Shown: piece after piece, positions 269 through 63,800 of the stretch | How positions within the stretch are numbered: position 1 is the stretch's first letter | How the letters are laid out: the number at the start of each line of letters is the position of its first letter | NCBI GenBank assembly: GCA_965199495.1 | Contig: CBDASK010000003.1 | Span: forward strand, 1,440,001-1,504,000 | Length of the DNA: 64,000 bases | Direction of reading: 5' to 3' | Source: Abditibacterium sp. | GTDB lineage: Bacteria > Armatimonadota > Abditibacteriia > Abditibacteriales > Abditibacteriaceae | Program-made: the position numbers and the translations under genes | The notes under the pieces: model-generated | What the model was told of the DNA's origin: nothing | Database searches by the model: none | Seen by the model: only the letters and a program-made list of their open reading frames with translations

Positions 269-2371
269 TTAGTTCGTCCTCTGTGCCCACACCGCGATGT
301 CGCGCGAAACGGACGGAATTTGCAACTTCAAACCTTGCTTATCCGCGCGCGCTATCGTCATTTGTAGCGGTTTGCCCGCGACCGTATCCCACCACGTCAC
401 GCGATAATTGCCCGGTTTCATCGGCGAAATCAACGCCGTTCCGCTCGCGCTACTCTGCGGCGTGGCTGCTTCGATGTTGTCGCGATTGTAGAACCAACCA
501 ATCATCCAATGGTCGTTGGCTTTGGCATAACCGCTCAAAACTGGCGCGGCGTTTGGCACGCTCAAATTGTTAAAAACGATCCAATCCTGTCCGGTGTTTT
601 CCAGCGCGAGGGTTTGCGGCCCGGCGCCGACCGGAATCGAAATTTCTTTATCCAAATTAGTATCGTTTTCCGTCGCTGCGAACGGATATTCCGTGGTTTT
701 GCCGCCGCTCGTCACACGCAAGTTGGCGCCCGCTTTGGCGACCTGTTTGAGCGTTAAAATCAGCGTCGTCGGTTTGGGCAAATCCAATTTGATTTGAAGC
801 GGTTTCGGGTTCATAGCGCGGTGATTCTCGCCCTGAAAATACGATGACAACTTGCCGAATTCGGCCACGTCATCGGGCTGGGACAAATCGAAATCGCTCC
901 GCACGAGCGCGCTCCAGCCGCCCGAAAAACTCAGTTTTAAATCGGTGCGGTCAGGCGTATCAATCGTCGCGCTAACGCGCCGCACCATCTGACGTTTATC
1001 CTGCGCCGCGAAACCACTTTGTTTCAATAACGCACTGGCCGATGCGAAATGGAAATAAAGATGGTCGCGCTCGACGCGGTCGCCTTCCCAATACTGCGCA
1101 GCGCCCGCGACATCGCTCATCAAACCGGCCCACAAACCCGAATGCAGCGTCCACTCGTCGGGCCGGTCTTTGGTGTTATCGGGGCCAAATTCGCCGACGA
1201 ATTCGGGTTTGACCGGCCACTCTTTGCCATTAAAATGCTCCGCGCTTAAAACCGGAATCAGATTGATCGGATAGGCGTGACGCTGATAATAATCTACCGG
1301 CGCGAAAACGGACGCGGGCACTTCGGAACTTGTAGTGATGAGATGATCGTAAATATCTTGGGCGCGCAGAAAGTCCGCCATCTCGCGGTGCCAAGCAGCC
1401 ACGTCGTCCCACTTGCCGTCTTGCGCGGCGGCGCTAAATTGGACTTCATTCCACAATTCCCACGCCATAATATGCGGCGAATAACCGTAGCGTGCCACGA
1501 TGTAGCGCAGTTTGCGTTTGGTCAATTCGCGGGCGCGGGCGTTGGTAAAAAATTCGTCGGGCGTGTTCAAGAAGCCGCCATTTTCGACGTTCCACGGGTT
1601 ATCGTCCCAGTTCGGATTAACCTTGAGCGAATACTGGCCGTGATGCTGAATCGTCATCTGCACGTAAACGTTGTGGCGGTCGGCGCTCTGAATAATATCG
1701 TCCCAAGTGTGCGCGACTTTCAAATCAAGGTCGCCGATGGGCAAGTGGTCGGATTGCGTCCAGTCCAAATTTTTGGAGTCCCAGTGATTCATCCAAATGC
1801 GCGACCAATTCAGCCCCGCGTTTTGAAGATCGGTGAATTTCGCTTCGTAACCCTTTTGCTCGCCGCCAATCCACGCCTGATTCAGGCCGAACGGATAAAA
1901 GCGCTTTCCATCTGCGAGGCTAAAACGCCGCGCGTTTTTGGCGTCAACACGCACCCACGCGCCGCTCAAAACGCTGGTTTTGCCGACTTTAAAGCGTTGC
2001 GGTTGCGCATTTAAATTCAATTTCTGGCCGTTATCGAAAACGCCGACAACTTTGTAAATCCCCGGCGTTTTGGGCGTGTGGCGCGCACGCCATGTGGTGC
2101 CGCCGTCGAAAAACGCGGGCAGCAAAATCGTTTTAGCATCGGGCATTTTCACAGCCACGCGCACGTCGTGGCTGAGGTAATCGAACGGATCGCCGACGAA
2201 GCCCGGCCACTCGAACGCGACCTCGATTTTCGCATAAGCGCGCACGCCCTGCTGGTTAACCGGTATAGCAAGGCGATTTGTTGGCGCCGAAGTTTGTGCC
2301 AAGGCGTAACTGGCCGAAATCAAGATGGCAGTTAAAGCCAGAGAAAAACAACGAAATTTGGATTGGGACAT
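269..2371 (-). CDS. Secreted glycoside hydrolase-like protein (DUF5060-like N-terminus, GH5-like TIM barrel)
   Basis: Signal peptide; FFDGGTTWRARHTP; IMAWELWNE acid/base motif; FVGEFG nucleophile-like motif. Confidence 0.7.
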   Translation of the reverse strand: MSQSKFRCFSLALTAILISASYALAQTSAPTNRLAIPVNQQGVRAYAKIEVAFEWPGFVGDPFDYLSHDVRVAVKMPDAKTILLPAFFDGGTTWRARHTPKTPGIYKVVGVFDNGQKLNLNAQPQRFKVGKTSVLSGAWVRVDAKNARRFSLADGKRFYPFGLNQAWIGGEQKGYEAKFTDLQNAGLNWSRIWMNHWDSKNLDWTQSDHLPIGDLDLKVAHTWDDIIQSADRHNVYVQMTIQHHGQYSLKVNPNWDDNPWNVENGGFLNTPDEFFTNARARELTKRKLRYIVARYGYSPHIMAWELWNEVQFSAAAQDGKWDDVAAWHREMADFLRAQDIYDHLITTSSEVPASVFAPVDYYQRHAYPINLIPVLSAEHFNGKEWPVKPEFVGEFGPDNTKDRPDEWTLHSGLWAGLMSDVAGAAQYWEGDRVERDHLYFHFASASALLKQSGFAAQDKRQMVRRVSATIDTPDRTDLKLSFSGGWSALVRSDFDLSQPDDVAEFGKLSSYFQGENHRAMNPKPLQIKLDLPKPTTLILTLKQVAKAGANLRVTSGGKTTEYPFAATENDTNLDKEISIPVGAGPQTLALENTGQDWIVFNNLSVPNAAPVLSGYAKANDHWMIGWFYNRDNIEAATPQSSASGTALISPMKPGNYRVTWWDTVAGKPLQMTIARADKQGLKLQIPSVSRDIAVWAQRTN

Positions 2372-2446
2372 TTGCAATTGATCCATAAAATGGAACAGTA
2401 GTTTGACCCAATCCAAATTTCGTTGTTCAAGACGCCAACCTTAATT

Positions 2447-3199
2447 TCAGGGAAGCGTCGGCGGATTGGTGGTGCCACCGCCGCCCGCCAACGTGCTGCC
2501 CGCAGTAATGGCTCCCGCCGTCGAGCCGCCAGAAGTTGTCGTGCCCGTCGTGCCGCCAGCCGTCAAACCAGTTGTTGTTCCACCCGCCGTCGTGTTGCCC
2601 GCCGTTGTTGCTCCCGTCGTCGTTCCAGCTGTTGTGCCCGCCGTCGTCGTTCCAGTTATGCCGCCAGCCGTTGTGCCGCCAGAAGTTGGTGTTGGCGATA
2701 CAACCATTGGCGGCACAACGCGACCGCGCAAAACGCTGTCGCCCGCTTTGAAGGGCGCGCTAATCGAGATCAAACCGTCATCGTCAAAATTTCCGGTCAG
2801 GCGAAATTTGGGGCCACCCTGATAGGAACCGTTCACATCGAGGTCGTAATCGAAACCGTTGGTGCCATCGAGAGCATTGCCCGTCAGGATATAAGTGCCG
2901 GGCGGCAATGCAACTGTAAAACCGATGGGATTTTCGGTCGCGGGCTTGGGATTGGTGGCGTCCACGACTTGCAGCGTGCCCGCCGCGCGCGTTGGGAACG
3001 CGGCCTGATCGGCGAATCTGATGGTCAAAATGCCGCGATATTGGGGAAAATCGAGGAACTGAATATCTTTCTGGCGCCCAAAACGTAACTCATCCGTGGA
3101 GCCGGAGCTGGAGCCACCGCCACCACATCCGGGCAAAAGTAAGGTTCCAGAAGCCAAAATTAGCGTCAAAGCGCCCGCAATTAAAAAAGAAGATTTCAT
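2447..3199 (-). CDS. Hypothetical lipoprotein with Thr/Gly-rich C-terminal tail
   Basis: MKSSFLIAG...LLPGC-GGGG lipobox-like; repeated GTTAG/GTTTG units. Confidence 0.6.
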   Translation of the reverse strand: MKSSFLIAGALTLILASGTLLLPGCGGGGSSSGSTDELRFGRQKDIQFLDFPQYRGILTIRFADQAAFPTRAAGTLQVVDATNPKPATENPIGFTVALPPGTYILTGNALDGTNGFDYDLDVNGSYQGGPKFRLTGNFDDDGLISISAPFKAGDSVLRGRVVPPMVVSPTPTSGGTTAGGITGTTTAGTTAGTTTGATTAGNTTAGGTTTGLTAGGTTGTTTSGGSTAGAITAGSTLAGGGGTTNPPTLP

Positions 3200-3342
3200 G
3201 AAAGTTAAAGCCGCTCCGGCGCGCGTCCGAAACTGCGCAAACATAGATTGCCACACATCTGCCATTGCGCCCGTGGGCGTCGCCAATTTTTGGGCGAAGA
3301 ATCTGCTATTTGGTGCGCGCGGTTTTGTGGCCGCGTATTATT

Positions 3343-3648
3343 ATGCAATATGAAGTCGGTTCATTGGAAGATTTGCCCGAAGGCGAGGGATTTTTGTTTC
3401 GCCGCGGCCCCTATCAAATCGCGCTGTTTCGCGACGGCGAGCGGGTGAGCGCCATTGACAACGAATGTCCGCACGCTGGAGCCTCGCTGTGTGGCGGCGA
3501 TACCGATGGACACATCGTCGCCTGCCCGTTTCACGGTTGGGAGTTCGATTGCCAAACCGGCGAATGTCTGTCGGTCGAGGGCTTCGACGTGGCTGTCTAT
3601 CCCGTCGTCATCGAAAACGGCGTCGTCAAAGTCAGCGTGCCGGATTGA
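3343..3648 (+). CDS. Rieske [2Fe-2S] ferredoxin (NirD-like)
   Basis: CPHAG...CPFHGWEFD Rieske motifs. Confidence 0.9.
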   Translation: MQYEVGSLEDLPEGEGFLFRRGPYQIALFRDGERVSAIDNECPHAGASLCGGDTDGHIVACPFHGWEFDCQTGECLSVEGFDVAVYPVVIENGVVKVSVPD

Positions 3649-3657
3649 GGTGCAACA

Positions 3658-5028
3658 TCATCCGCTATCCGCAGCCGAGACCACGCAATTTTTGCCTTCG
3701 TCTTTGGCTTGGTAGAGCAGTTCGTCAACGCGGTGAAGCGCGTTTGTTGCGGTGAGCGTGTGGCCCGGTTCGAGCGTGAGGGCGCCCACGGAAATCGTGA
3801 CTTTGCCCAATAGTGAGTTTTTGCCAAAGCGAATTTCGAGTTCGTGCAACACGCGCTGATGCAAACGGCGCGCGATCTGTTGCGTCTGTTTTTGGTCGGT
3901 TTCGGGCAAGATAATCAGAAACTCGTCGCCGCCGATGCGCGATAAATCGTCCACTTCGCGCAGTTCGCCCTGCGCCGATTCGTGGACGGCGATCAAAACG
4001 CGGTCGCCCGAAGCGTGGCCCAGCGTGTCGTTGACCGGCTTGAAGTTATCGAGATCGAACATCAACAGCGAAAGCGGGCGGCCAAAACGGGCGGCGCGCG
4101 CCAGTTCGGTTTCCAAAACGCGCTCGCAGTGGCGCCGGTTGTAACCGCCCGTCAGCGAATCGGTTTCGGAAATCGCCTTCATTTTCAAGGCTTGCAACGC
4201 CAAATCAAACGCCGAATCGAAGACGCGGCGCCGCAACACGGCGTTGAACTGCGACAATAACACAATAAATAGCGCCACGGTGCCCACGACCCAGACCGCG
4301 CCCGCCATTGAAATCGTCTGCATCGAAGCGGGAGTCGCCTTCAATCCCATAATTAACGTGCCCACCACAATGCCGCTGATGAGCATCGTTTCGCGAAATC
4401 TGAGCGGCAACACCAGCGAAGTGAGCAGAATATGGCAAAACGACGACGCGATGACGAACTGAACCGCGCGCGCGCCCGCGAATTGCGGCGAAGCGACGGG
4501 CGCAAAAACCAGCGGCAGGGCGAGGGCCGTAGTCGCGGAAAAGAGCGCGAAGCCCGCCAAAGTCAAAAGTCGCGCCTGAGCCAGCGAACGCACACGAAAT
4601 GTCAACGCGATTTGCGCAGTCATGCCAAAGATAGCCACGGCCCCATCCAATAAAATTTCGCGCGCCAGCCCGGAATATAATACGAAATAAAAACCGATGA
4701 AACTCGTCAGACAAACGATGCCGATGGTCGCCGCCAAACGCAAACGCACGATAAAAATGCGCAACCACTGCTCGCGAAAAAGCGGCTCGCGCGCGGCCTC
4801 GGTCAACGCAGACGCCTCGATCACGCCGGGCGCATCCGGCGCATCCAGCCCGCCGGGCGCATCTTCCAAATCGAAAATCGGATGCTCGCGCAACGAATCC
4901 GACAGCGCATCCCAAAGGTCTCGCCAATTCGATGCTCGCCACAACGAACTTCGCCACAACGAACCTCGCGTTCCGCTTTTGGAACGCGAGCGGTGGGCCG
5001 AGCGAGAAGAACGTGACATAAAAGTCAT
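3658..5028 (-). CDS. Membrane-bound diguanylate cyclase (GGDEF)
   Basis: About 6 TM segments, then TDSLTG, FDLDNFKPVNDTLGH, RIGGDEF. Confidence 0.9.
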   Translation of the reverse strand: MTFMSRSSRSAHRSRSKSGTRGSLWRSSLWRASNWRDLWDALSDSLREHPIFDLEDAPGGLDAPDAPGVIEASALTEAAREPLFREQWLRIFIVRLRLAATIGIVCLTSFIGFYFVLYSGLAREILLDGAVAIFGMTAQIALTFRVRSLAQARLLTLAGFALFSATTALALPLVFAPVASPQFAGARAVQFVIASSFCHILLTSLVLPLRFRETMLISGIVVGTLIMGLKATPASMQTISMAGAVWVVGTVALFIVLLSQFNAVLRRRVFDSAFDLALQALKMKAISETDSLTGGYNRRHCERVLETELARAARFGRPLSLLMFDLDNFKPVNDTLGHASGDRVLIAVHESAQGELREVDDLSRIGGDEFLIILPETDQKQTQQIARRLHQRVLHELEIRFGKNSLLGKVTISVGALTLEPGHTLTATNALHRVDELLYQAKDEGKNCVVSAADSG

Positions 5029-5241
5029 CCCTGGGGCGATAAAATGTCAAAGCCCATTTTTATCGAAATACGCGGTCTTGCAACGGTAAAAAACAGTCAT
5101 TTTTCATCGCACCTAAAGAATATCTTATATTCAATATAAACGATTTTGGCCAATTATAACACCGGTTAAAATCGGACTACAGCAACTCTTTTGCTCATAT
5201 CGCCGTAACGCATTTTCGTTCGACACTTGTTTTCTCTTGCT

Positions 5242-6396
5242 TCACGAGCCACGCCACGAAGTCGGCGTAAAAATCTCGGCAAAAGTTTGCGAGGCGAAAC
5301 GGTCGGTCATGCCCGCGATGTAATCGCAGACGCAGCGCGCCAATTGTTCTTGGCTCAAATCGCGCCAATCGCCCGAAGTTGCCGGGCACAAAGTGCCCCG
5401 CATTACGCCGGGATTGTCCATGAAATAATCGAACAAACTGTTGATAACGTGATAAACGCGCGGCTCTTCGTCGGCGGAGTTGACCAAGTAAACATGGTCG
5501 AACATCCAATTTTTCAAGGCATCGGTCGCTTCCATCACGTCGTCGCGCATGGCGATACGCGCGCACTGGCGCTCGCCATTCACGGTTTCGCTCGACGCCT
5601 CGATAATCGCGCCGACCATCGTCGCAATGCGTTGCGCGTGACGCTCGCCTAAAACGTTCAGACATGCGCGCGGCAACTGATTTTGCTCGATAAACCCGGC
5701 GCGTAACGCGTCATCAATGTCGTGGTTGACATAAGCCACGCGGTCGCAGATGCGAATGACCTGGCCTTCGAGCGTCGAGGGTTTGCCGACTTGCAGCCAT
5801 TTATCGAGGGATTCGCCCGCCAATAAATCGGATTTGCCCTTGGAGTGATGCAAAATTCCGTCGCGCACTTCCCACGTCAAATTTAAGCCTTGCCCGCCGT
5901 TTTCCAATTCGTCGAAGATGCGCAGCGAATGTTCATAATGCCGAAAGCGCGCCTTGGAATCGTGGCGCCGATAAGCTGCGTCGAGCGCTTCCTCGCCGAC
6001 GTGGCCATAGGGCGCGTGGCCGACATCGTGGCCCATGCCGATGGCTTCGGTCAAATCTTCGTTCAAACGCAACGCGCGCGCGACGGTGCGCGAAATCTGC
6101 GTGACTTCGAGCGTATGCGTCAGCCTCGTGCGATAATGATCGAATTCGGGCGAGATAAAAACCTGCGTTTTGTGTTTCAGTCGCCGAAACGCTTTGGAGT
6201 GAATAATGCGGTCGCGGTCGCGCTGCCAGTTGGTGCGAATCGGGTCGGGTGAGATGGGTTTTTCGCGGCCTTTGGAGAGCGCCGATTTGGCGGCGTTGGG
6301 GCCGAGCGTGGCGAACTCGCGCGCTTCGAGCATTTGTCGAATATCGCTTAAATCCGCGCGCGGCGCGATGTCGGTGGCGTCGTGGGTGTTGTTCAT
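5242..6396 (-). CDS. dgt: Deoxyguanosinetriphosphate triphosphohydrolase (HD domain)
   Basis: RDRDRIIHSKAFRRLKHKTQV, RTRLTHTLEV, HDVGHAPYGH, DYIAGMTD. Confidence 0.93.
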   Translation of the reverse strand: MNNTHDATDIAPRADLSDIRQMLEAREFATLGPNAAKSALSKGREKPISPDPIRTNWQRDRDRIIHSKAFRRLKHKTQVFISPEFDHYRTRLTHTLEVTQISRTVARALRLNEDLTEAIGMGHDVGHAPYGHVGEEALDAAYRRHDSKARFRHYEHSLRIFDELENGGQGLNLTWEVRDGILHHSKGKSDLLAGESLDKWLQVGKPSTLEGQVIRICDRVAYVNHDIDDALRAGFIEQNQLPRACLNVLGERHAQRIATMVGAIIEASSETVNGERQCARIAMRDDVMEATDALKNWMFDHVYLVNSADEEPRVYHVINSLFDYFMDNPGVMRGTLCPATSGDWRDLSQEQLARCVCDYIAGMTDRFASQTFAEIFTPTSWRGS

Positions 6397-6479
6397 AAAA
6401 AACTCTTTTCCCCAAAAGTCATCTTCTCCAGTTTGACGCCGATGCGTTCATACTAAATAGTCTGAAAAAGAAAAACGTG

Positions 6480-6603
6480 CCAGCGAATGAATTCGCGGCT
6501 GGGAGGCATTCTGCCGAGCGTCCCCCTACGGGGACGCAATCGCATCCTGTCCGCGCAGGCGGACTTCCGGCTTTAGCCTCCCAGCCGCGAATTCATTCGC
6601 TGG
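6480..6603. repeat. REP-like palindromic element, family A
   Basis: Inverted arms ccagcgaatgaattcgcggctgggaggc / gcctcccagccgcgaattcattcgctgg; right part near-identical to 42606-42661. Confidence 0.85.
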
Positions 6604-6659
6604 TTTGAATTTTATCGCTTTTCTTTGTTTCGATTAATTAACAATAGAGCCTTCTCCCG

Positions 6660-7538
6660 ATGAAACGTTTTTCCCCGCTCTTGTTGTGCGCGCTGCCGTT
6701 AATTTTATCGGTCAAACCGGCGCGCGCGTGGTGGCCGCAGGGCCACTCCATTATCGCGGCGGGTGCTGTCGCGGCGTTGCCCGATGATGTTCCGATTTGG
6801 TTTCGCGCCGGAGCCGGGCAAATCGCGCACGATGCGCAAGACCCCGATTTGCAAAAAAACAGCGCGCTGCCGATTATGACCGAGCGCGAATATCCGCAGC
6901 ATTTCTTCGACTGGGAATTGGTCGGCATGGAGAAATTGCCGCCAACGCGTCGCGCGTTCTACGCCGATTGCGCCAAACGCGGCGTCAACCCGTTCGATGT
7001 CGGCGAATTGCCCTACTCGCTCGCCGAATGGACGGGGCGCCTGACGATGGATTTCGCCGAAGCGCGCGCCTATCCCGGCAACGCTTATGTGCAAACCAAA
7101 ACTTTGGTGACCGCCGGAATTTTGAGCCATTATAGCGGCGACGCCACCATGCCGCTCCACGTCACCAACGATTTCGATGGCCACGTAAAACCGGACGGTT
7201 CGTCGCCCAAAACCGGCATTCACGCGCGCGTAGATTCGCTTATCGAAAAATTGGAGTTGACGCCGCAACAGTTAGCACAAAATCAAACTATCGAGCCGTT
7301 GCCCAATTTATGGCCCGGCATCGAAGCGCAGATGCGCGAGACTTACAGCCACGTCGGCCAAACCTACGATTTAGAAAGTCAGTTGCCGCTCGAAACTGGC
7401 GATTATAAACCAACGCCCGCCGTGCAAGCGTTCGCGCTCGAACGCGGACGGGCGGCGTCGCGTTTTACGGCGCAACTGTTTTTGACAGCATGGCGCGATT
7501 CGGCTGTGATCAAGTTGCCGGCGTGGCTCAAACGTTAA
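6660..7538 (+). CDS. Secreted S1/P1 nuclease / Zn-dependent phospholipase C-like protein
   Basis: Signal peptide ending ARA, mature N-terminus WWPQGH; HYSGDATMPLH; IHARVD Zn-ligand motifs. Confidence 0.8.
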   Translation: MKRFSPLLLCALPLILSVKPARAWWPQGHSIIAAGAVAALPDDVPIWFRAGAGQIAHDAQDPDLQKNSALPIMTEREYPQHFFDWELVGMEKLPPTRRAFYADCAKRGVNPFDVGELPYSLAEWTGRLTMDFAEARAYPGNAYVQTKTLVTAGILSHYSGDATMPLHVTNDFDGHVKPDGSSPKTGIHARVDSLIEKLELTPQQLAQNQTIEPLPNLWPGIEAQMRETYSHVGQTYDLESQLPLETGDYKPTPAVQAFALERGRAASRFTAQLFLTAWRDSAVIKLPAWLKR

Positions 7539-7548
7539 TGGGTTTGCT

Positions 7549-8361
7549 TTAATTCCGTTCGCGTCGCGCCCAAACCAGCCAAATGCCCCACGCCGCGCTT
7601 TGCGGCTCCGGCTCGCAAACGACGGTAAAGCCCTGCGCGCGCAGCAAATTTTCGACTTGGTTGACGCGTCCATTTTCGTCGTGAACTTCGGCGACGACCT
7701 GGCGAATGCACGGCCAATCGCGCGCGCTGATGCCGCGCAAAACGTCCCATTCGGCGCCTTCGACATCAATTTTGAGCAAGTCAACTTTCTCGATTTGCAG
7801 CGCGTGAACGATGCGGCTGAGCGTTTCGACGCGGCAACTGACTGGACGTGGCTGCATAAAAACGCGCACCATTCCCGCGACCAAAGCGTTGCGCAACCAA
7901 TGCGGCGCGCGGCGAAACCAACCGAAGCGCGGCGCGAGTTGCGCATCGTCCAAAACGGCCATCGCGCCCGACGCGGCATGGTTGCCGATCCATTCGGGAA
8001 AACGCGTCGAAAGCGCACTCATCCAGCGAAAATAAGCGAATTGCGCCACGCCCGCTTCGCCGCCCAAAGCCAAATTATGCGCGCGGATTTTATCGTCGCC
8101 AAACGCGCGCGCGTTGGCTTGTAAAGCGGCGAAAGTCGCGGGCATCGGCTCGAACGCCTGAACGTGGGCGCCGCGCCGCGCCGCTTCGAGCGAAAACAAA
8201 CCGATGTTGGCGCCAATATCCACCACGCAATCGCCGTCTTCGATGGAGATTCCGTGTCGCAGATACAGCTCGATTTGACCAGCCACGCCGCGCACTTCCT
8301 CGCGATTCGTGCAATAAATTAAGCGGCCATCGGGCGCAACGACGCGGGAAAGTTTGGGCAT
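7549..8361 (-). CDS. FkbM family methyltransferase
   Basis: VVDIGANIG SAM motif, AFEP, LLKIDVEGAE; the track's longer N-terminus runs through a repeat element. Confidence 0.88.
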   Translation of the reverse strand: MPKLSRVVAPDGRLIYCTNREEVRGVAGQIELYLRHGISIEDGDCVVDIGANIGLFSLEAARRGAHVQAFEPMPATFAALQANARAFGDDKIRAHNLALGGEAGVAQFAYFRWMSALSTRFPEWIGNHAASGAMAVLDDAQLAPRFGWFRRAPHWLRNALVAGMVRVFMQPRPVSCRVETLSRIVHALQIEKVDLLKIDVEGAEWDVLRGISARDWPCIRQVVAEVHDENGRVNQVENLLRAQGFTVVCEPEPQSAAWGIWLVWARRERN

Positions 8362-8368
8362 ATTTGGG

Positions 8369-8565
8369 TTTTGAGGTAATTGCGACGCCTCGCACCCCCT
8401 CTGTCCTTCGGACATCTCCCCCTCCGAAAGGGGGAGAGGCAGCTTTACCCTCGACATCGCCAGAACGAATGCAAATAATGAACGGTGAATGCGCACTCTC
8501 CCCCTTTCGGAGGGGGAGATGTCCGAAGGACAGAGGGGGTGCGAGGCGTCGCAATTACCTCAAAA
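8369..8565. repeat. Long inverted-repeat element, family B
   Basis: About 70-bp arms ttttgaggtaattgcgacgcctcgcaccccctctgtccttcggacatctccccctccgaaagggggagag and reverse complement, each with internal hairpins. Confidence 0.9.
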
Positions 8566-8600
8566 ATTACAAGTATTAAAACAAACGTGTTCCTAAAAAT

Positions 8601-9851
8601 TTAATCGTTATGTTCCAAAACCCAGCGACGCAATAAATCAATTGCCGTCAGCGCGGCGCGTTTGCGGATCGCGTCGCGGTCGCCGTGAAACTGTTTCTTC
8701 ACCACTTCGACGCCGCCCGGATGCGCCAGACCAATATAAACCGTGCCGACGGGATTGTCGGTTGCCGGGTCGGGGCCAGCTTCGCCGGTCGTGGAAAGTC
8801 CGTAAGTGGCATTCATCGCTTTTTGAACGCCGGTCGCCATTTGCGCGGCGATTTGTTCGGAAACCACGGTATATTTTTCGATGTCCGCCGCGCTGACGCC
8901 CAAAACTTCTTCTTTGATAAACGGCGAATAAGCCACGACGCCGCCCAGAAAAACCGCGCTGCAACCGGTCGCCTCGGTCATTGAGGAACCCAGCCAACCG
9001 CCAGTCAACGACTCAGCCACGGCGACCGTCGAGGAGCGCGCGCTGAGCATATCCACCAAAACCTGCGGCAAATGTTGGTCGTCGCGCCCGAAGATTTTGT
9101 CGCCGACGCGCTCGCGCACGCGGTCTTCCATCGCGTCCAAAAGTTGCGTCGCTTCGGCCTCGTCGCGGGCTTTGGCTGTCATGCGCAGATGCACTTCGGT
9201 GTTGCCGAAAATTAGCGGCGCCACGGTCGGATTGGTCGCCGTTGTCAAAATATCTTCGACCTCATCGGCCAACTGCGATTCGCCCACGCCAAAAGTGCGC
9301 AGCACGCGCGAGACGATAATCATGCGCTCGCCGCCGATTTTTTCCAATAATGTCGGGATAATCGTCGCGCTCATCATCGCGCGCATTTCGCGCGGCACGC
9401 CCGGCACGGCGAAGATGAGTTTGCCGTCTTGGTCATACAAAACGCCGGGCGCCGTGCCCGCCGGATTGTCGAACGCCCGCGCCGTGGCTGGGATGTAGGC
9501 CTGACGCAAAAACGTTTCCTGCATCGGAATCTCGCGGCCCGCGAAAAAAGTGCGCAGAGTTTCGGCCAAATTCTCGTGAAATTCGAGTTCGACGCCCAAC
9601 GCGGCGGCGATGCCTTCGCGCGTCAAATCGTCGGTCGTCGGGCCAAGCCCGCCGGTGATAATGAGAACATCGGCGCGAGATAACGCGCCTTGGATGCAAT
9701 CGGTGATGCGATCCAAATTGTCGCCGACGGTCTGTTTTCGGTGAAGGTCAACGCCCGCTCGTGCGAGTTCTTGGGCGATATAAACGGCGTTGGTGTCGGT
9801 GATTTGTCCCAGCAAAAGCTCGGAGCCGACACAAAGTATTTCTGCGCGCAT
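8601..9851 (-). CDS. cinA: Competence/damage-inducible protein A (MoCF-like + NMN deamidase domains)
   Basis: VGSELLLGQITDTN, GGLGPTTDDLTRE, AVAESLTGG, STTGEAGP. Confidence 0.93.
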   Translation of the reverse strand: MRAEILCVGSELLLGQITDTNAVYIAQELARAGVDLHRKQTVGDNLDRITDCIQGALSRADVLIITGGLGPTTDDLTREGIAAALGVELEFHENLAETLRTFFAGREIPMQETFLRQAYIPATARAFDNPAGTAPGVLYDQDGKLIFAVPGVPREMRAMMSATIIPTLLEKIGGERMIIVSRVLRTFGVGESQLADEVEDILTTATNPTVAPLIFGNTEVHLRMTAKARDEAEATQLLDAMEDRVRERVGDKIFGRDDQHLPQVLVDMLSARSSTVAVAESLTGGWLGSSMTEATGCSAVFLGGVVAYSPFIKEEVLGVSAADIEKYTVVSEQIAAQMATGVQKAMNATYGLSTTGEAGPDPATDNPVGTVYIGLAHPGGVEVVKKQFHGDRDAIRKRAALTAIDLLRRWVLEHND

Positions 9852-9946
9852 AAATTTGAGATGACCAGTCTAAGCGTTTTGCGCGCCAAAGTTGTTTTGG
9901 ATTTTGGGATAAGCCACCGAGGACGAAGAGAACACAAAGGATTACC

Positions 9947-10112
9947 ATAGTTGCGCTCGCGTTGTCATTTCGAGCGAAGCCGAGAAATCTTACGCCCGCG
10001 CGGCAGCGCAGAGAATGCGAGAGCTTGAACGTAAGATTTTCTCCAACTTGCGCTGCCGTGCGGGCGTAAGATTTCTCGGCTTCGCTCGAAATGACAACGC
10101 GAGCGCAACTAT
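9947..10112. repeat. Long inverted-repeat element, family C (TGTCAT...ATGACA type)
   Basis: Arms atagttgcgctcgcgttgtcatttcgagcgaagccgagaaatcttacgcccgc... and near-perfect reverse complement. Confidence 0.9.
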
Positions 10113-10158
10113 TGCCCTTGGTGTCTCTACAAAATTTGCAACCGATAAACTAAAAGCC

Positions 10159-11295: not shown

Positions 11296-11370
11296 TTTGG
11301 AAGTCGAGGGTCGGCAGACGTTTTACTGGCTCCTGACTTATTGCTCTCAACTTCTTATACTCCTATAAGC

Positions 11371-12957: not shown

Positions 12958-12974
12958 ACCAGCGATGCCAGCTC

Positions 12975-13018
12975 AATTCCACAAGTTCTCGCGCGAGTCG
13001 GAGCTTGTGGAATTTTTT
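12975..13018 (+). terminator. Probable intrinsic terminator
   Basis: aattccacaagttc...gagcttgtggaatt followed by T-run. Confidence 0.6.
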
Positions 13019-13048
13019 CTATCGAATTGTCGATTTCTCACTTTTTCA

Positions 13049-13906: not shown

Positions 13907-14084
13907 CAGATTTATTCTGTTAGACTATAGCAATACGTGCGATAATTAATGAAGCAGACGCCCTCGATTGCCAGTCTTCTATAATTATCTTAACCTTTCG
14001 GCTGTTTCAAAAGTGAGTTGCGCGGGTATAATTAAGGCGAGCCTTCGCAATTTTCCCAATTTCTCCGCGCGCTCTTTCGTTATT

Positions 14085-14759: not shown

Positions 14760-14774
14760 ATAGCCCGACCCAAG

Positions 14775-14807: not shown

Positions 14808-14845
14808 GACACGCGTTTGCGCGCCATGAAGTAAAATTTTAGGTC

Positions 14846-48943: not shown

Positions 48944-48949
48944 TTAAAA

Positions 48950-49732: not shown

Positions 49733-49755
49733 AGCAAACTATCCAACATCAACCA

Positions 49756-50661: not shown

Positions 50662-50736
50662 GAACGCGAAAGTCCACTCACTTTCGCTCACCATCCTTGT
50701 CCCCTGTTTCTTGCTCCTTGTCCCTTACAAATTATT

Positions 50737-52605: not shown

Positions 52606-52620
52606 ATTTCGGCGAGATAA

Positions 52621-52659
52621 AACGAACCCCGGCGCAAGTAATTTGCGCCGGGGTTCGTT
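52621..52659 (+). terminator. Hairpin/terminator after glmS
   Basis: aacgaaccccggcgcaa-gtaat-ttgcgccggggttcgtt; weak U-tract. Confidence 0.65.
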
Positions 52660-52714
52660 CATTGACATATCCGCTTAAATTCGCCGTCTCACGCTCGACA
52701 ATTACACTGTCCGC

Positions 52715-54214
52715 ATGGTTAATTTCCCCACGCGCGCCGTTTCGCTCGCGCTGTTCACAACTTTAATCGGCGCCGTGTCCGCGCAATCGCAACCGAATTT
52801 ACCGTCCATCGCGCACCTGAGAAACGATGGCGCGCCGCAAATTCATAGCGCACGCGTGGTAGGAGCCACGCCGGGCGCGCCGTTTCTGTTTGGGGTTGCG
52901 GCGACGGGCGACGAACCGTTGCTTTATCAAACGCAAGATTTGCCGCCCGGCCTGATTTTGGACGCCAAAACCGGCGTGATTCGCGGCACGTTGCTCTACG
53001 CGGGCGCGACGACAGTGCGACTGCGCGTCAGCAACGCGTTGGGCGAAACGACGCGAAATTTGACGATTATTGGCGGGCGACATCTGCTGGCGCAGACGCC
53101 GCCGATGGGCTGGAACTCGTGGAACGCTTACGGTTGCGGCGTGACCGGCGCGCGCGTGCGCGCCGCCGCCGATGATTTGGTCAAGTCGGGATTGGCCCGG
53201 CGTGGCTACGGGTTCGTGACGGTTGACGATTGCTGGCAAGGCGCGCGCGGCTCTGACGGAGTTTTGCGCGCGAATAATAAGTTCGGCGACATGAAAGAGT
53301 TGGGCGACGATATTCACGCGCGCGGTTTGAAGTTTGGGATTTACTCGGCGCCTTCGGCTTTGACCTGCGCCGGATTTACTGGCAGTTTCGGCCACGAAAT
53401 TGGGGACGCCCAAACCTTTGCCAATTGGGGCGTGGATTATCTTAAATACGATTATTGTTCGTATGACAAAGTCAAGCGCACGCCGGGGCGCGCGGGCATT
53501 ATCGAACCGTTCGCACTGATGCGGCGCGCACTCGATGCTTCGGGGCGCGACATCGTTTATAGCATCAGCCACTACGGGCGCGACGAAGATTGGACATGGG
53601 CTGGATTCGCGCCGGTGCAGGCGAATTTGTGGCGCACTTCGCGCGATCTCAAGGGAAATTACAATTCGATGGCGCGCATCGGTTTCGGACAAAACGGCTT
53701 ATATAATTACGCCGCGTCGGGCCGATGGAACGATCCCGATATGCTCTATTTGCACAAATTAAAACCGCAGGAACAACTGACGCAAATGACGCTGTGGAGT
53801 TTGTTGGCCGCTCCGTTATTTATCGGCAGCGATATTAGTCAACTCTCGCCGTTCACGCTCGATGTTTTGGGCAATTCGGAAGTTATCGAAGTGGATCAAG
53901 ACCCACTGGGCATCGGCGCGCGGCGCGTGAGCAAAGTCGGCGAAACCGAAGTTTGGGCGCGTCCGTTGTGGGACGGAACGGTCGCTGTTGGCCTGTTTAA
54001 TCGCGGAAAAAACGCGACGAAAGTTGAGGTTAATTGGAACGAAATCGGTTTGAGCGGGCAACAACCGGTGCGCGATTTGTGGCGACAACGTGATCTGGGC
54101 GCGGTGGAGAATTACGCGACGCAAGTGCCATCGCATGGCGCGATATTGGTGAAAGTTGGGACGCCCAATGCGGGCGATTATGTGCCGAATTGGATGGAAT
54201 CACCGGACAATTAA
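52715..54214 (+). CDS. Alpha-galactosidase (GH27) with N-terminal Ig-like domain
   Basis: TPPMGWNSWN, VDDCWQ, GLKFGIY, WGVDYLKYDYC, WNDPDML. Confidence 0.92.
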   Translation: MVNFPTRAVSLALFTTLIGAVSAQSQPNLPSIAHLRNDGAPQIHSARVVGATPGAPFLFGVAATGDEPLLYQTQDLPPGLILDAKTGVIRGTLLYAGATTVRLRVSNALGETTRNLTIIGGRHLLAQTPPMGWNSWNAYGCGVTGARVRAAADDLVKSGLARRGYGFVTVDDCWQGARGSDGVLRANNKFGDMKELGDDIHARGLKFGIYSAPSALTCAGFTGSFGHEIGDAQTFANWGVDYLKYDYCSYDKVKRTPGRAGIIEPFALMRRALDASGRDIVYSISHYGRDEDWTWAGFAPVQANLWRTSRDLKGNYNSMARIGFGQNGLYNYAASGRWNDPDMLYLHKLKPQEQLTQMTLWSLLAAPLFIGSDISQLSPFTLDVLGNSEVIEVDQDPLGIGARRVSKVGETEVWARPLWDGTVAVGLFNRGKNATKVEVNWNEIGLSGQQPVRDLWRQRDLGAVENYATQVPSHGAILVKVGTPNAGDYVPNWMESPDN

Positions 54215-54267
54215 AATTTTCTGAAATGTCCACTGGCGGATCAGAAAGCAGTGACATTCAGAAACTC

Positions 54268-54316
54268 AAAACATAAAAAAGCATCGTCCCAAACGGACGA
54301 TGCTTTTTTATGTTTT
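54268..54316. terminator. Bidirectional intrinsic terminator
   Basis: aaaacataaaaaagcatcgtcc-caaac-ggacgatgcttttttatgtttt. Confidence 0.85.
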
Positions 54317-54325
54317 CCACAAAAC

Positions 54326-54958
54326 TCAAGTTCCGATGCGTCCGCCCGGTTTTTTGTTGAGCACGACGAAACCGATGGCGGCCAAAATCGCGCCCACTAA
54401 AATACCGGGAACTAATCCGTGTAGTAGCAGATAACCGACGATAAAGCCCAACACGAAACCGCCGATGCCGCCGAAAATTGGCATCATGCCGTTGCCAGCG
54501 GGCGCCGACGGGCGCGGCGTCGAAGCAGCCACCGGCGGCGCGGGCGCCTTGATAACGCGCGGACGCGCAGGCACCTCTTGCTTGTCCTGCACGCCGAGCA
54601 GACTGGTTTTGTCGGCATCCGATTCGGCGGTGCCCAACAAATCGTTCATGAAAGTCTCGAAATCTACATCGGCGGTGCCCTGACGCGCCGCCGCCAAATA
54701 GGCGTCGTAGCGCGCGCGTTTGGGGTCTTCCAGCAGAGCAATGCGGGCGGCGGGCAACAGTTCCAACAAAGCCTGAAATTCGCGACGTTTGTTCAAGTTG
54801 CGATGATCGCGATTGGCCGAAGCGTAATTATAAAGCGCGCCGATTTTCGAGCGCAACGCTTCGGCATCGGCGTCGGGCGATTCTTCCAGCAACGTATAAA
54901 AATCTATGGTGCCGTTTTCCAATTGCGAGTCAGCCAGGTGATAGGTGATGTCTGCCAT
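54326..54958 (-). CDS. J-domain-like protein (no HPD) with two C-terminal TM helices
   Basis: DFYTLL..SPDA...LEDPKRARYD matches J-domain ends; Pro-rich linker; hydrophobic hairpin. Confidence 0.7.
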   Translation of the reverse strand: MADITYHLADSQLENGTIDFYTLLEESPDADAEALRSKIGALYNYASANRDHRNLNKRREFQALLELLPAARIALLEDPKRARYDAYLAAARQGTADVDFETFMNDLLGTAESDADKTSLLGVQDKQEVPARPRVIKAPAPPVAASTPRPSAPAGNGMMPIFGGIGGFVLGFIVGYLLLHGLVPGILVGAILAAIGFVVLNKKPGGRIGT

Positions 54959-54998
54959 GTTAATTTGGGTTGGGTAAATTACTTTACAACAAAGCGCC

Positions 54999-56534
54999 TC
55001 AAGAAATAATCGCCTGCGACAGCAACAACGCTTCTTCTTCGACTTCGGAATCTTCGCGCTCGCCGGTCAGCGAAATCAAGACGCGGCTTTCGCGTCCCGT
55101 ATCCGAATCGCGCGCGACCGCGATGATGCGCCCGTTTTCGTCGCAGCGAAACTCAACCGCGATGTTGGGCCGTCCCGCCGGACGCGCGGGCGTCGTATCC
55201 AGGTTAAACACGCCGATTGGCCCGTTGGGATAGGCTTCGGGATCGCGCGATTCGCCCTCGTAAATGCGCACCTGCACGCGTTCTTGGCCATCGAGCGTCG
55301 TCGTGTAGCCGCCGCGCGTCTGCGAACACGGCAAAGGCGAAAGCGCCGGAATAATATGATCAATTTGCGTGTGCCCGCCCTTGACAGTCGCCACACCCAA
55401 GCTGTGCGCCAAAACGTGGCCGACGTTGACTTCTTCGACGGTTTCGTCTTTGGTCAACAACGCCGCTTGCAGCGCGGCGCCTTTGGCGACGCATTCGTCG
55501 GGATCGTGCAACAGCGGGCGGCGGCCCGACAGGCGCGTCAACATTTCGCGCACCATCGGCATACGGCTCGAACCGCCCACGCACAGCGTTTCGGAAATAT
55601 CGTCCCAACCCAAACCCGACTGTTGCATCACGTTTTCCAGCAACAATTCGGTGCGCGACAGCAAATCCGCGCACATCTCCTCGAACTTTTCGCGCGTCAA
55701 TTCGACGCGAACCGGGATATAGGTTTCCATCGTGCCACCGCCGGTGGCTACGCTGCGCTTGGCCTTGAAGGTAATCGGCACCGCTGGGCGTCCGGTCAAC
55801 TGGCGTTTGGCGGCTTCGGCTTTGAGGCGCAGTTCCGCTTCGAGCGATGGGTCGGGTTCGAGTTCGTAGCCGAACTTCTGTTGCAACTCGTCCTCGATGA
55901 AGTTCATGATGCGGTCATCCCAATCTTTGCCGCCCAGATGAGGGTCGCCGCCCACGCCCAACACGTTCAAATTATCGTTGTCAATCGCCAAAATCGTCAC
56001 GTCGAAAGTGCCGCCGCCCAAATCGTAAACCATGATATTGCGGGGCCGACCGCGCCGCGAAATGCCATAACTCAAGGCCGCCGCCGTCGGTTCGTTGATG
56101 ATGCGCAATACATTTAAACCGGCCAGAGCGCCCGCTTCGTAGGTCGCGTGGCGCTGCGATTCGGTGAAGTAAGCCGGAACCGTGATGACGGCTTGGGTGA
56201 TGGTTTCGCCCAGCGTGTCTTCGGCCTCCTGAACGACTTTGCGCAGGATGACCGACGAAATGAATTCGGGTGAAAACGCTTGTCCGTCCACCATGACGCG
56301 GTAATCAGCCACGCCCATGAAGCGTTTGACGAACTGCACCACGCGCGATGGATCGGTCATCGTTGATTGCAACGCGACTTCGCCCACCACGTAATTGGGC
56401 GGGTCAACGAAGACGACCGAGGGCGTCGTCGTCTGTCCATCCGAGTTTTTGATCACCATTGGCTTGCCGTATTCGTCAACGCAAGCCACTGCGGTGTATG
56501 TCGTTCCGAGGTCAATTCCTATTGCGCGAGACAA
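54999..56534 (-). CDS. Hsp70/DnaK-like protein (short, lid-less)
   Basis: GIDLGTT, TVPAYF, INEPTAAA, DLGGGTFD, VGGSSRMP; 511 aa; AGGAG before TTG start. Confidence 0.92.
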   Translation of the reverse strand: MSRAIGIDLGTTYTAVACVDEYGKPMVIKNSDGQTTTPSVVFVDPPNYVVGEVALQSTMTDPSRVVQFVKRFMGVADYRVMVDGQAFSPEFISSVILRKVVQEAEDTLGETITQAVITVPAYFTESQRHATYEAGALAGLNVLRIINEPTAAALSYGISRRGRPRNIMVYDLGGGTFDVTILAIDNDNLNVLGVGGDPHLGGKDWDDRIMNFIEDELQQKFGYELEPDPSLEAELRLKAEAAKRQLTGRPAVPITFKAKRSVATGGGTMETYIPVRVELTREKFEEMCADLLSRTELLLENVMQQSGLGWDDISETLCVGGSSRMPMVREMLTRLSGRRPLLHDPDECVAKGAALQAALLTKDETVEEVNVGHVLAHSLGVATVKGGHTQIDHIIPALSPLPCSQTRGGYTTTLDGQERVQVRIYEGESRDPEAYPNGPIGVFNLDTTPARPAGRPNIAVEFRCDENGRIIAVARDSDTGRESRVLISLTGEREDSEVEEEALLLSQAIIS

Positions 56535-60645: not shown

Positions 60646-60852
60646 TGCGTTGGGTTATTCGGTTGTTCATTGAGCTTAACCGATGAAACGAGTGCGAGAT
60701 AAGGCGCGTTTCGCGAATGACTGTGGCTTGAGTTAGCCAAGCGCACGCAACAGCATTAATTCAACTCAAGCGCGCGAAAAATTCACTTTCGGGGGCTTTC
60801 TCCGATTGACAACGAGCGCGAAATCGCTCCTACTTAGAAGTTGGAATTTTCT

Positions 60853-63800
60853 ATGCGCTTTTTCATGCCCGCTGCGGCAGCCTTGCTTCTGATAAGTCCC
60901 GTCATTCGCCTCGCACAGGCCCAGACAACCCCCGAAAAAATAACGCCGCTCGCGCCCAAAACGCAATCGCAATCCCTCGTCAACCAACTGCTGCGCGAAG
61001 GCAAAGTCATGCGCGCCTCAGACGCCAAACGCGGCATGAAAGGTTACGCGCTCAGCGTGTTTCAGGGCACCAAAATCGAGAAGTTCAACGTCGAAGTTTT
61101 GGGCACGCTCGAACGCGTGCAGGGCGGCGGCGACTTGGTAATGATTAAAGTTTTGGATGGGCCGGTCGTCACGCGACAGAGCGGTATTATTCAGGGCATG
61201 AGCGGTTCGCCGGTTTATATCAACGGTAAACTTCTGGGCGCCATCGCGATTGGTTTTGGCTTTCCCAAAGAACCGATTGGCGGCGTCACGCCCATCACTG
61301 AAATGATCGAGGGCGCCCTGCCCGATAATTCGCAGAAACCCAATCCCGTCAAAGTCGCGGAATTGCCCGCGTTGTCGCGCCGTGTGGCGAATTATAGCGC
61401 GGCCAAAGCCGATAAAGCGCAGGTTTTCACCGCGCCGCAACCGTGGATCGAAGGCGCGTATGTTCCCAAACAGCCGCTGCAAATCGGCGAGCATAACGTG
61501 ACGCGCGTGGCGGTTTCGTCCGACCTGCGCGTGCCCGATTGGAGCGGCGTGGCTGGTGCCGCCACGATGGCGATGCGGCCTTGCACGCGATTAGTTTTGT
61601 TGAGCGGCGTTTCGCCCGATTCTTTGCCGCGCTGGCAACGCTTGTTCGCGCCCTATGGTTTAACGCCGATGATCGGCGGCGGCGCGATGAGCAAATCGGC
61701 GCAAATGCAGGTTTTTGGCACGCCCTCGACCAAAACCGGCGTGCAAGCCAACTTGGCGCCGGGCGCGGCGATTGGCGTTCAACTCGCGTCGGGCGATGTG
61801 GACGCGACTGGCGTTGGAACCGTCACTTATCGCGTGGGCAATCGCCTATTGGCGTTTGGGCATCCGATGTTCAACTTGGGCAGCGTTTCGATGCCGATGA
61901 CGACGGCTTACGTTCACGATATTTTTCCGGCCTACGACATTTCGTTTAAATTAGCCTCGCCAATTAAGGTCGTGGGCGAGTTGCAGCAGGACACCAACTT
62001 CGCGATTGGCGGCACCGTCGGGCGCATCGCGCAGACCGTCCCGATGCACATTTCCCTCGTTGACCCGGCCAAGAAAATCAATCGCGATTGGAACATGAAG
62101 CTCATCAAAGACCCGCTGTTTACTCCGCAGTTGGCGAGCAACACCGCGCAGGAAGCGCTGACCGCCGCATTGGGTTTAGATTCGGGCAAAACCGTCAACG
62201 TCGCGTTTCGCATGCGTCTGAAAAATGGCGCGCTCATCAATCGGCACAACACGGTTTACTCGGACGGCCAAGTTTTGCAGGGCGCCTTGACCGAAATGCT
62301 GACGGCGCTGTCTTTAACGCAGCAAAACCCGTTCGAGAAGGGCGACATCGCCGGAATAGATTTGGCCGTCGAAGTCGTGCCCGAACGCAAAACCGCGACG
62401 ATTCGCGCGATTTCCGCCGACCGCAACAAAGTCAAGGCGGGCGAAAAAGTCACCGTGACCGTCGAATTGGAGCCGACCGGACAGCCCGACGAAACCGTTA
62501 CCAAACGATTTGTCGTGCCGATTCCCGCCGACTCACCTAACGGCACCTTGCGCGTGGCTGTTGGCCCCGCCGACTTGTTCTGGATGCTGCGCGCGCGCGT
62601 CGGTGGCACCCCGCCCAACCCCGGCAACCTGCCCGAACTGTTGCAAGCCTACGATAAAGTCGGCGCCTCCAACGTGTTGACTTTGCAGGCTTCGACGCCC
62701 GACCGATTTTTGTTGGTTGACCGCAAAAAAGTTTCGGATCCGCCGCCGTTGTGGGGTCGTTTGGTGCCGCAAGCCGCGTCGAGTTCGCTACGCGCCTATA
62801 ACGAGACCGTCGAGCAGCAGCAGAAAAGCGAATACGTGTTGTCGGGCCAGCAGTTTTTGGCGATTCCCGTTGAATCGGTGCGCCCCAGCGACCGCAACGA
62901 GCCAACGGACGCGACGCAAAATAGCGGCGCCAGCACCGCGAGCGATGCGACCGACGCGGGCGATATTCTGGACGGCGGACAAACCACGATGTCAACGCTG
63001 GGCGACGATGAAATGGCGACTGATTGGGATCAATTCGACACGCCCGCTCGCTATCGCGCCGTTTTGCGCAAGCTGAATTTGCGCAATCTGCAAATTCCGT
63101 CCAAGGGCAACGAACCGCCCAAACTGCCGCCGACCGAAACGCCCAAAACCACGCCCGCCGTGCCAGCCACGCCGACGCCCAAAGTCGAAGCGACGCCCGC
63201 GCCAACGCCGGTTCCGGCTCCGACGCCCGACCCAACGGCCAATAATATCGCGCGCCCGCCGGGCCGATGGATTCAAAACACGACCGCCGATTTCAACGGC
63301 GGCAATTTCTACGGTTCGGTCGTGAGCGACGACGGTTCGATTGTGCCCGGCCCGCGCGAAAAAGAATTGGTTTCGAGCGCCGAACCGGTCGCATGGAGTC
63401 TGGCGGTCGCACCCGACAACACGCTTTACGTCGGCACCGGTTTTCACGCGCGCCTGTTGCAAATTCGCAACGGCGTTTCGCGCGTGATGTTCGAGGGGCC
63501 AGAAGTCGCCATTACCGCCCTGGCGTTGGGCGAAGACGGCACCCTCTACGCCGGAGCCAGTCCGGGCGGACGCGTTTACCGGTTCAGGCCGGACGGCAAG
63601 CGCGAGGTTTTGCTGCAAACCAAAGAAACATTTATTCACGCGCTCAAAATTACGCCGCAGGGACTTTACGTCGGCACGGGCGGGCCGCGCGCCACGCTCT
63701 ATCGCATCGAAAACCCCGCGACGGTTTCGGCCAACCCGATTGCCAAACCGTTGGTCGTGTTGCCGCAAACGCATCTCAACTCGCTCGAAGTGCGCGGCTC

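Follow-up and report, generated by a model that had tools for sequence, protein, structure and literature searches.

What could maintain a short, asymmetric word at about one copy per kilobase, in both orientations and inside as well as outside genes, along a bacterial chromosome? This question is raised by a 64,000-nucleotide stretch of an Abditibacterium sp. genome (a class placed by GTDB in Armatimonadota; assembly GCA_965199495.1, contig CBDASK010000003.1, positions 1,440,001 to 1,504,000; hereinafter, the window), in which a preliminary description, made from the letters alone, proposed that the dispersed heptamer AGCCACG is a signal resembling DNA uptake sequences. By exact count, the window contains 73 copies, 43 as AGCCACG and 30 as CGTGGCT; the 70 copies (41 and 29) counted previously come close, one plus-strand copy at 63165 lying past the end coordinate then assigned, and every example coordinate is that of a real copy. 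In 100 dinucleotide shuffles of the window, the heptamer occurs 7.89 +/- 2.73 times on average and 15 times at most, which bears out the excess originally claimed over an expectation of about 12. Longer forms had also been claimed, and indeed 50 of the 73 copies extend to CAGCCACG, 22 to GCAGCCACG, and 32 to the complete CAGCCACGBCG (B standing for G, C or T). The diverse frames reported for the word (A-A-T at 20761, S-H at 7347, R-G-W at 15062, A-W-L at 7521, R-V-A at 33443) agree with the open reading frames, and the copies at 16136, 16150, 19386 and 41585, described as extragenic, lie between called genes. What was missing from that description is the 3' extension (B-C-G), a tolerated variant, AGCCACCG, and strand-specific spacing, the new property reported here.

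The window is part of the 4.72-Mb chromosome (contig C3) of the genome that is denoted G000 in our comparison of 31 genomes of the class, and this chromosome carries 2,256 + 2,277 = 4,533 copies of AGCCACG. Among the checks put forward with the preliminary description were k-mer statistics under high-order Markov models, codon-preserving shuffles and an extended consensus, and all three substantiate the enrichment. Parts of the word rank first in over-representation at k=6-10 under maximal-order Markov models of C3; the consensus in G000 is (A)GCAGCCACG(G/C/T)CG; CAGCCACGBCG is found 1,067/1,046 times on C3, compared to 12/15 for the reversed control; and perfect 11-mers occur in 421-1,051 copies, as opposed to 0-54 for most one-off variants. 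According to the gene calls made for this analysis (3,946 genes, 84% of C3 coding), 4,141 of the 4,533 copies (91%; 1.04/kb) are in coding DNA and 370 (0.50/kb) are intergenic. The coding expectation came from five protein-preserving synonymous codon shuffles, which yield 742-793 heptamers (a 5.4-fold observed excess), 261-292 octamers (2,834 observed, 10-fold) and 47-67 of the 11-mers (1,938 observed, ~35-fold). All six reading frames are occupied, and 8% of all GCT codons of G000 are inside the motif. Because the excess survives codon-preserving shuffles, these findings support a signal that acts at the DNA level, genome-wide and beyond codon effects; the word thus withstood the refuting checks named in the preliminary description. 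The density of the word is 0.24-0.34/kb in islands and a prophage, and 0.2/kb, versus 0.65/kb, in the 10 five-kb windows that are richest in avoided restriction words (about 14 palindromes are strongly avoided on C3); the 25-kb and 65-kb contigs C1 and C2 hold 2 and 6 octamers.

So how are these copies arranged? For pairs of octamers in the same orientation, the observed/expected ratio in successive bins up to 1.5 kb is 0.10, 0.21, 0.32, 0.34, 0.44, 0.67, 0.83 and 0.90, whereas for pairs in opposite orientations it is 0.78-1.08, with an excess solely below 60 bp (86 inverted pairs, mostly intragenic, fall within 40 bp, versus about 40 expected). At 60-600 bp, there are 178 same-strand pairs against 349 +/- 13, with a minimum of 308, in 1,000 strand-label shuffles, and the fitted length scale of the avoidance is 0.93-0.96 kb. 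Given that same-orientation copies avoid one another and opposite copies are indifferent, each strand is tiled separately, with approximately one site per 1.8-2 kb per strand. The avoidance persists between sites whose genes run in opposite directions (29 vs 56 pairs) and is therefore independent of transcription; neither helical (10.5-bp) phasing nor a fixed period was detected in the spacing of G000 sites, nor any 5'/3' asymmetry in spacing or divergence around them. When avoidance is used as a read-out, it disappears with most changes in AGCCAC, whereas AGCCACCG and variants altered at the first C retain it, few pairs being available for several variants. Genome-wide, AGCCACCG is scarce in the vicinity of perfect sites on the same strand (g=0.30), and thus this variant probably functions as a site. 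The window alone is too small a sample to display the pattern well (3 vs 10.8 same, 8 vs 10.3 opposite); the related genome G011 repeats it below 600 bp (2/14 same vs 16/15.5 opposite); in G004, another relative, same-strand spacing is confounded by short tandem copies and few sites. Of the 711 octamers that occur 500 or more times on the plus strand, those ranking 1 to 15 in self-avoidance are all parts of the word, the median of the 711 being 1.25. This ranking, together with the excess over protein-preserving shuffles and the presence of intergenic copies, refutes the explanation that the word simply results from codon usage, dipeptide usage or the avoidance of restriction sites, notwithstanding the many avoided palindromes that inflate some neighbouring words 2-4.6 fold.

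Comparison with relatives shows how the sites evolve. Enrichment of CAGCCACG is limited to 3 of the 31 genomes, G000, G011 and G004, which form a clade in the RecA tree (100/99, 28 rows). The synonymous-site conservation that the preliminary description suggested testing is readily apparent: in codon alignments with G011, 146 of the 152 four-fold sites within the motif are identical, against 0.75 elsewhere, and 49 of 66 distinct sites have been retained, the fraction for random 8-mers being 0.40. In G004, only 22 of 119 sites are kept, against 0.29 for random 8-mers, which implies site turnover, and several of the kept sites have shifted in place to the G004 dialect, GACACCAGCCACGTCC(T)A. None of 116 sites is kept in genus members that lack this word, and the amino acid identity to such relatives is 0.56 at motif codons against 0.70 elsewhere; lowered amino acid conservation at uptake sequences is described in the accessible portions of PMC2817400 and PMC2397512. 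Orthologous sites differ by substitution, in gap-free codon alignments. Thus, point substitutions create and alter the sites where they stand, in codons that permit it; the sites are more conserved than their surroundings; and a new site is disfavoured within ~1 kb of a site in the same orientation, with opposite sites being irrelevant.

These observations bear directly on the possibility that the word is a mobile repeat, akin to repetitive extragenic palindromic (REP) elements and their doublets (REPINs), that spread and then decayed. The long form of the G004 word reads GTAG... on the other strand and forms intergenic doublets resembling GTAG-family elements: 30 inverted pairs, ~32 bp apart, in 262 kb, of which 24 have an AAA or TTT outer flank, with a mean predicted hairpin energy of -47.9 kcal/mol for the 30. 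Furthermore, in two other family members, G001 and G017, most sites of the words (44/48 and 74/79, respectively) lie beyond the coding DNA that homology confirms. The G000 copies, in contrast, are single, overwhelmingly genic and made by substitution rather than spread by insertion as intergenic hairpins; no covarying diagonal indicative of a hairpin around the core was detected in G000; and the true GTAG-type REP-like family of this genome is a separate sequence. A REP-like origin is thus largely refuted for G000 and extremely improbable overall. That separate family, which starts with GTAGAGAC, is dispersed over C3 (e.g., 83230-83330) in 142 + 152 copies, often as inverted doublets.

Is the per-strand tiling a matter of replication? 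The strand share of sites is 0.476-0.516 over every half-split of C3, that is, there is no replichore polarity, a feature that separates the word from KOPS (the FtsK-orienting polar sequences) and from a lagging-strand priming signal. With oriC set at dnaA, 1,499 sites are leading and 1,584 lagging, so that the strong leading-strand bias, which the preliminary description associated with Chi or KOPS, is absent, and no skew step was found around G000 sites past about 100 bp. A priming or replication-restart site, read on a single-stranded template, would be attractive in view of the 0.9-1 kb length scale, which is near the size of Okazaki fragments, of the very weak replichore signals in G000, and of the altered zinc-binding strand of DnaG in some word-bearing genomes. 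Against this stands the equivalence of leading and lagging sites not only in number but also in avoidance (0.28-0.32 vs 0.34-0.38) and conservation (23/29 vs 26/37); the DnaG strand is unaltered in the word-bearing G001, G014 and G017 and altered in the word-less G013; and the PF01896 primase was found in none of 5 genomes. We consider such a site improbable. As for the chromosome in general, its GC skew is very weak and gene-strand bias almost nil, although the rpmH-dnaA-dnaN region with its DnaA boxes is normal.

Chi sites are polar, read on a single strand, enriched in core DNA and leading-strand biased. The word shares with them the orientation dependence, here inferred from spacing only, and differs in its longer consensus and lack of leading-strand bias. 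Moreover, RecC was found in 0 of 5 genomes; no AddA-like protein (with the G012 protein as query) was detected in G000, G004 or G011, with matches in all 10 other genus members; and no AddB-like protein was detected in G000. An AddAB-like operon is present in 10 of the 13 genus members, outside the G000 clade, and in 0 of the 14 other family members with that query; G001 has it together with a word. The classical Chi option of the preliminary description accordingly finds no support. A less conventional version, in which the word is an intracellular self-mark for break repair, with oriented sites at which some directional enzyme of resection, annealing or RecA loading, neither RecBCD nor AddAB, would stop or load, is a different matter. 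Both orientations would be needed equally because breaks fall anywhere (e.g., on drying), and per-strand tiling without replichore bias is the expected outcome of polar stopping or loading; also, 10 of the 11 word-bearing genomes lack an AddA-like gene (G012 query), and a phage carries the word of its host (see below). Yet G001 holds an AddA-like gene and a word together; the gene is missing from 7 word-less family members as well, and related genomes do not count as independent cases; the helicase-nuclease of G000 that resembles Dna2 is also encoded in the word-less G016; there is no 5'/3' asymmetry; and known Chi sequences are shorter than the 11-19 bp consensus words. On balance, this version appears rather unlikely, although it is a serious rival.

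Several candidate readers were considered and rejected along these lines. Loss of AddAB as the cause fitted the genus perfectly until G001 was found to combine an AddA-like gene with a word, and the Dna2-like protein was dropped for its presence in G016. The matches to PF12705 in G000 are a small stand-alone nuclease and this Dna2-like protein, which consists of 1,421 amino acids with a PD-(D/E)XK nuclease and an AAA_11/12 helicase (C3 4111365-4115630, L050), is encoded in a genome without an AddAB-like operon, and is found also in G004, G016 and G017. In alignments of ComEA, ComEC, RecA and DnaG, no column cleanly separates the word-bearing genomes. Minor pilins fare no better, with none being basic and the fastest-evolving one differing most between G000 and G011 (49% identity), which share a dialect.

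The methylation-driven repeat that the preliminary description also entertained can be extended to a ratchet or a mismatch-repair strand-discrimination signal with one-strand methylation. An asymmetric methylated site would require independent tiling for each orientation, and palindromic words of relatives resemble the highly iterated palindrome HIP1 of cyanobacteria, which is methylated according to the available text of PMC13756078. However, divergence is flat with distance from sites (0.73-0.76 in every bin, no gradient); the soft flanks are unlike a methyltransferase site; and no methyltransferase tracking the word was found among those compared, some families being unscreened, the best candidate occurring in word-less and missing from word-bearing genomes. 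One methyltransferase, g1918, was rejected as a partner, being present in 19 of the 31 genomes without any tie to words. Methylation as the driving force is thus quite improbable.

The distribution of such words across the family adds another dimension. Of 27 family genomes, 11 carry a word of their own, at about 0.6-1.1 sites/kb, and at least seven different words are involved (G028 was left out of this scoring). The survey combined sampling with whole-genome counts. For each of the 16 negatives, it covered 14-160 kb in addition to pattern counts, and a word may have been overlooked in some of these genomes; in a 20-kb sample of G014, the word was misleadingly absent. Words are palindromic in G014, G018, G020, G022, G024 and G042 and asymmetric in G000, G011, G004 and G001, the forms across the family ranging from single sites to inverted pairs to HIP1-like palindromes. 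AGTACT is extreme in 5 of the 251 genomes of the phylum searched, all five in this family; the palindromes of G020 plus G022 avoid one another (7/25 below 300 bp); and the non-coding share of sites is larger outside the G000 clade. Faint candidate words, AAGTACTT in G041 and AGTCGAA in G023, were noticed in samples and may be decaying or weak signals. Exact copies of the G001 15-mer, 11, 7 and 2 versus 0 in controls, occur in G008, G005 and G007, clustered on few contigs, and possibly represent DNA from a G001-like donor or remnants.

This patchy presence, with words that are unrelated between sister species (G001 vs G008), ill suits a core housekeeping reader and so disfavors the idea that the word is a site where a DNA translocase or nucleoid organizer (an SMC-like or other motor) is loaded or stopped in an oriented manner, tiling the chromosome both ways. 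A one-way motor at an asymmetric site would also produce orientation-specific spacing, and a structural role has been proposed for quasi-periodic HIP1 in the accessible part of PMC13756078; nevertheless, with no phasing or period in the spacing and no candidate protein found, such a site, although a serious rival, is distinctly unlikely.

Viral sequences carry the words unevenly. The 58-kb phage IMGVR_UViG_3300034031_000030 (ParAB, terminase, portal) has the G017 word at near-host density, 33 sites in 43 kb; it is akin to the G000 prophage at 4.22-4.24 Mb. Elsewhere in the viral scan, the G004 word was found in 0 contigs, the G000 pair at 11 loci, none enriched, the G020 word at 119 loci with at most 0.2/kb, and the G001 word at 3 loci as single copies. 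The CRISPR spacers of G000 are uninformative, with the word in 1 of 130; the array (C3 ~2,766,000-2,775,000) comprises ~131 repeats, and one spacer fully matches the chromosome (593119-593155) and another partly matches the prophage (4220123-4220148).

Which known system does the word resemble most closely? As far as the available text of PMC3630211, PMC2397512, PMC7811141 and PMC2817400 goes, it shares with the DNA uptake sequences (DUS) of Neisseriaceae and the uptake signal sequences (USS) of Pasteurellaceae the density of ~1 copy/kb, the asymmetry, and the occurrence on both strands and in all frames, as well as the use of permissive codons, conservation of sites, scarcity in acquired DNA, even spacing (expected from uptake drive, PMC7811141), species dialects, hairpin-forming inverted pairs and, in some species, overlapping dyads. 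In particular, the shared core of the G000 and G004 dialects and the hairpin-forming pairs of G004 parallel what is described for DUS in the accessible part of PMC3630211. The differences are substantial as well: the lineage is distant and, compared with the consensus sequences given in the available text of PMC3630211 and PMC2817400, that of G000 is unrelated except for CTG on one strand; 91% of the G000 copies are genic; and no ComP-like reader was seen. The HIP1-type palindromes, as described in the accessible text of PMC13756078, are likewise hyper-abundant, spread by substitution, conserved, regularly spaced and patchy with variants, with an uptake role proposed, and the GAGTACTC and AAGTACTT words of six relatives resemble them; the G000 word differs in being non-palindromic, and no methyltransferase partner was found. 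It is because the word is non-palindromic that the action on each strand becomes visible, a palindrome hiding orientation.

The DNA word is the target of selection or drive, operating on each orientation over ~1 kb, and we infer that any ~1-kb single-stranded or directional piece must offer a sequence-specific protein one or more sites in the right orientation. We tentatively propose, at a probability of roughly 45%, that the word is a lineage-specific tag of self DNA, similar to DUS and USS and tied to transformation; genomic likeness suggests membership among uptake sequences. Reading of the tag would be confined to one strand or one direction, and the tag would be held at the observed density on each strand through selection or drive with diminishing returns. 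Natural transformation would be the likeliest setting, given that a single strand is imported through the type IV pilus/ComEA/ComEC route; pieces with the tag might have an advantage in uptake, protection or RecA loading, as in DUS and USS and as proposed for HIP1, and the inverted pairs and palindromes of relatives might be a cheaper way of putting one site on each strand. The competence genes of G000 are intact: comEC with three domains, comEA, and a pilB-pilT-pilC-pilD-minor pilin operon (the comEA and comEC frames of G012 are short). The giant last gene of this operon is duplicated in G000 (1,292 and 1,329 amino acids; C3 872853-880963, L320/L321) and also in G004 (L322), and single in G009, G012 and G020.

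A number of facts weigh against the self-DNA tag. ComEC, ComEA and prepilin peptidase, found in 30, 29 and 28 of the 31 genomes, respectively, and thus in most word-less kin too, do not track the words. No basic ComP-like pilin is encoded in the G000 pilus operon (net charge -13 to -1), 47 prepilin genes being unscreened. The words of the family have no single common core, unlike DUS dialects, and include true palindromes. ComP reads mainly double-stranded DUS, according to the available text of PMC12061091, and such reading would not predict orientation-specific spacing. A DUS control, for which segments rich in DUS were chosen from metagenomes by DUS match (23 segments with 470 sites in 385 kb), speaks for the tag in that it leans the same way, albeit weakly, toward same-orientation avoidance: 39/84 pairs below 300 bp, near expectation past 600 bp and, with 215 paired sites removed, 10/24 same vs 28/24 opposite. 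These are small counts, and the avoidance is weaker and shorter than in G000 (~0.3 kb vs ~1.5 kb). Finally, the phage with the G017 word suits an intracellular reader at least equally well. A broader possibility, somewhat doubtful as it stands, is that the word belongs to an unrecognised class of DNA signals read strand by strand by an intracellular machine rather than by an uptake pore. Should this be the case, one oriented site per 1-2 kb per strand would be provided in three ways, by singles, by inverted pairs and by palindromes of the HIP1 type, and HIP1 and part of DUS biology would be special cases.

Table 1. Positions of the word and other features in the window, and words of other family members.
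Feature	Coordinates	Strand	Details
Dispersed AGCCACG set	458..63174	both	73 copies (32 complete CAGCCACGBCG); exact count
AGCCACG, 43 plus copies	1397..63171	+	exact count; starts 1397 2153 4633 5247 5734 7347 8281 8931 9015 11550 13250 13813 16136 17044 18054 18744 18825 20763 22521 26250 28716 31740 33925 34533 34841 35050 37554 38226 38804 39447 41087 41585 42846 45149 47222 48321 49830 51301 52864 56307 59233 60373 63165
CGTGGCT, 30 minus copies	461..62559	-	exact count; starts 461 2167 3588 7522 7847 9483 10359 15062 15894 16150 16444 19386 19998 21705 23900 27751 30792 32282 33445 37675 41417 41881 42992 44741 47275 49594 53201 56989 61548 62553
Close inverted pair, intragenic	2152..2174		one site on each strand, span 23 bp
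Close inverted pair, intergenic	16135..16157		flanked by divergent genes; hairpin with flanks predicted, -20.7 kcal/mol
Variant AGCCACCG, 18 copies	3112..55749		+ 3112 9912 25656 27483 36595 42182 46555 54527; - 11826 12600 12753 13660 17510 25769 39209 42404 44467 55742
Example site	20761..20772	+	most frequent sense frame (Ala-Ala-Thr)
Example site	33443..33454	-	most frequent antisense frame (x-Val-Ala), uses rare GCT codon
glmS	50737..52605	+	relatives at 8 loci, 73-96% amino acid identity; used for lineage placement only
Word of G017			AGTACGGTCGA; 1,335/1,374 for pattern; often abutting inverted pairs
Word of G020, G024, G042			TCGAGTACTCGA
Word of G022			cGAGTACTCg
Word of G014			GCAAGTACTTGC
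Word of G018			AAAGTACTTT; 14-kb sample only
Word of G001			CCACAAAAAATGAAG; 667/628

Apart from the word, the window encompasses a cobalamin riboswitch (60452-60658, minus strand), a cluster of B12-type ABC transporter genes (47102-50661) and a gene for a 1,215-amino-acid protein (19726-23373, plus strand) with a weak BrxC-like P-loop match. Elsewhere on C3, there is a single 16S gene (1860971-1862487, L001), and probes found no adjoining 23S gene or tRNA; the rRNA genes of G000 may be unlinked, and the search for copies in rRNA spacers was dropped, no 23S gene having been found beside the 16S gene.

Uptake sequences are described for two families, Neisseriaceae and Pasteurellaceae, in the available portions of PMC3630211, PMC2397512, PMC7811141 and PMC2817400. 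We found no description of this word, or of AGTACT as a highly iterated palindrome, in the literature searched, and no Abditibacterium paper among those listed deals with motifs, as judged by title or the opening of the abstract; in this literature, subscription papers were thinly covered and supplementary word tables left aside. The signal is real, selected and family-wide, and the same-orientation avoidance over ~1 kb and the per-strand tiling appear to be new. The tiling is the most informative, and a surprising, feature, and any mechanism must explain action on each strand. The function of HIP1 has been a question for three decades, and here one little-studied family spans asymmetric singles and palindromes, and includes word-less sister species. 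The sharp prediction is an orientation- and strand-dependent activity over ~1 kb, and the juxtaposition of word-bearing and word-less sisters is a gene-hunting design that offers a direct route to the reader. Possibly, the word is a key to genetics in this lineage.

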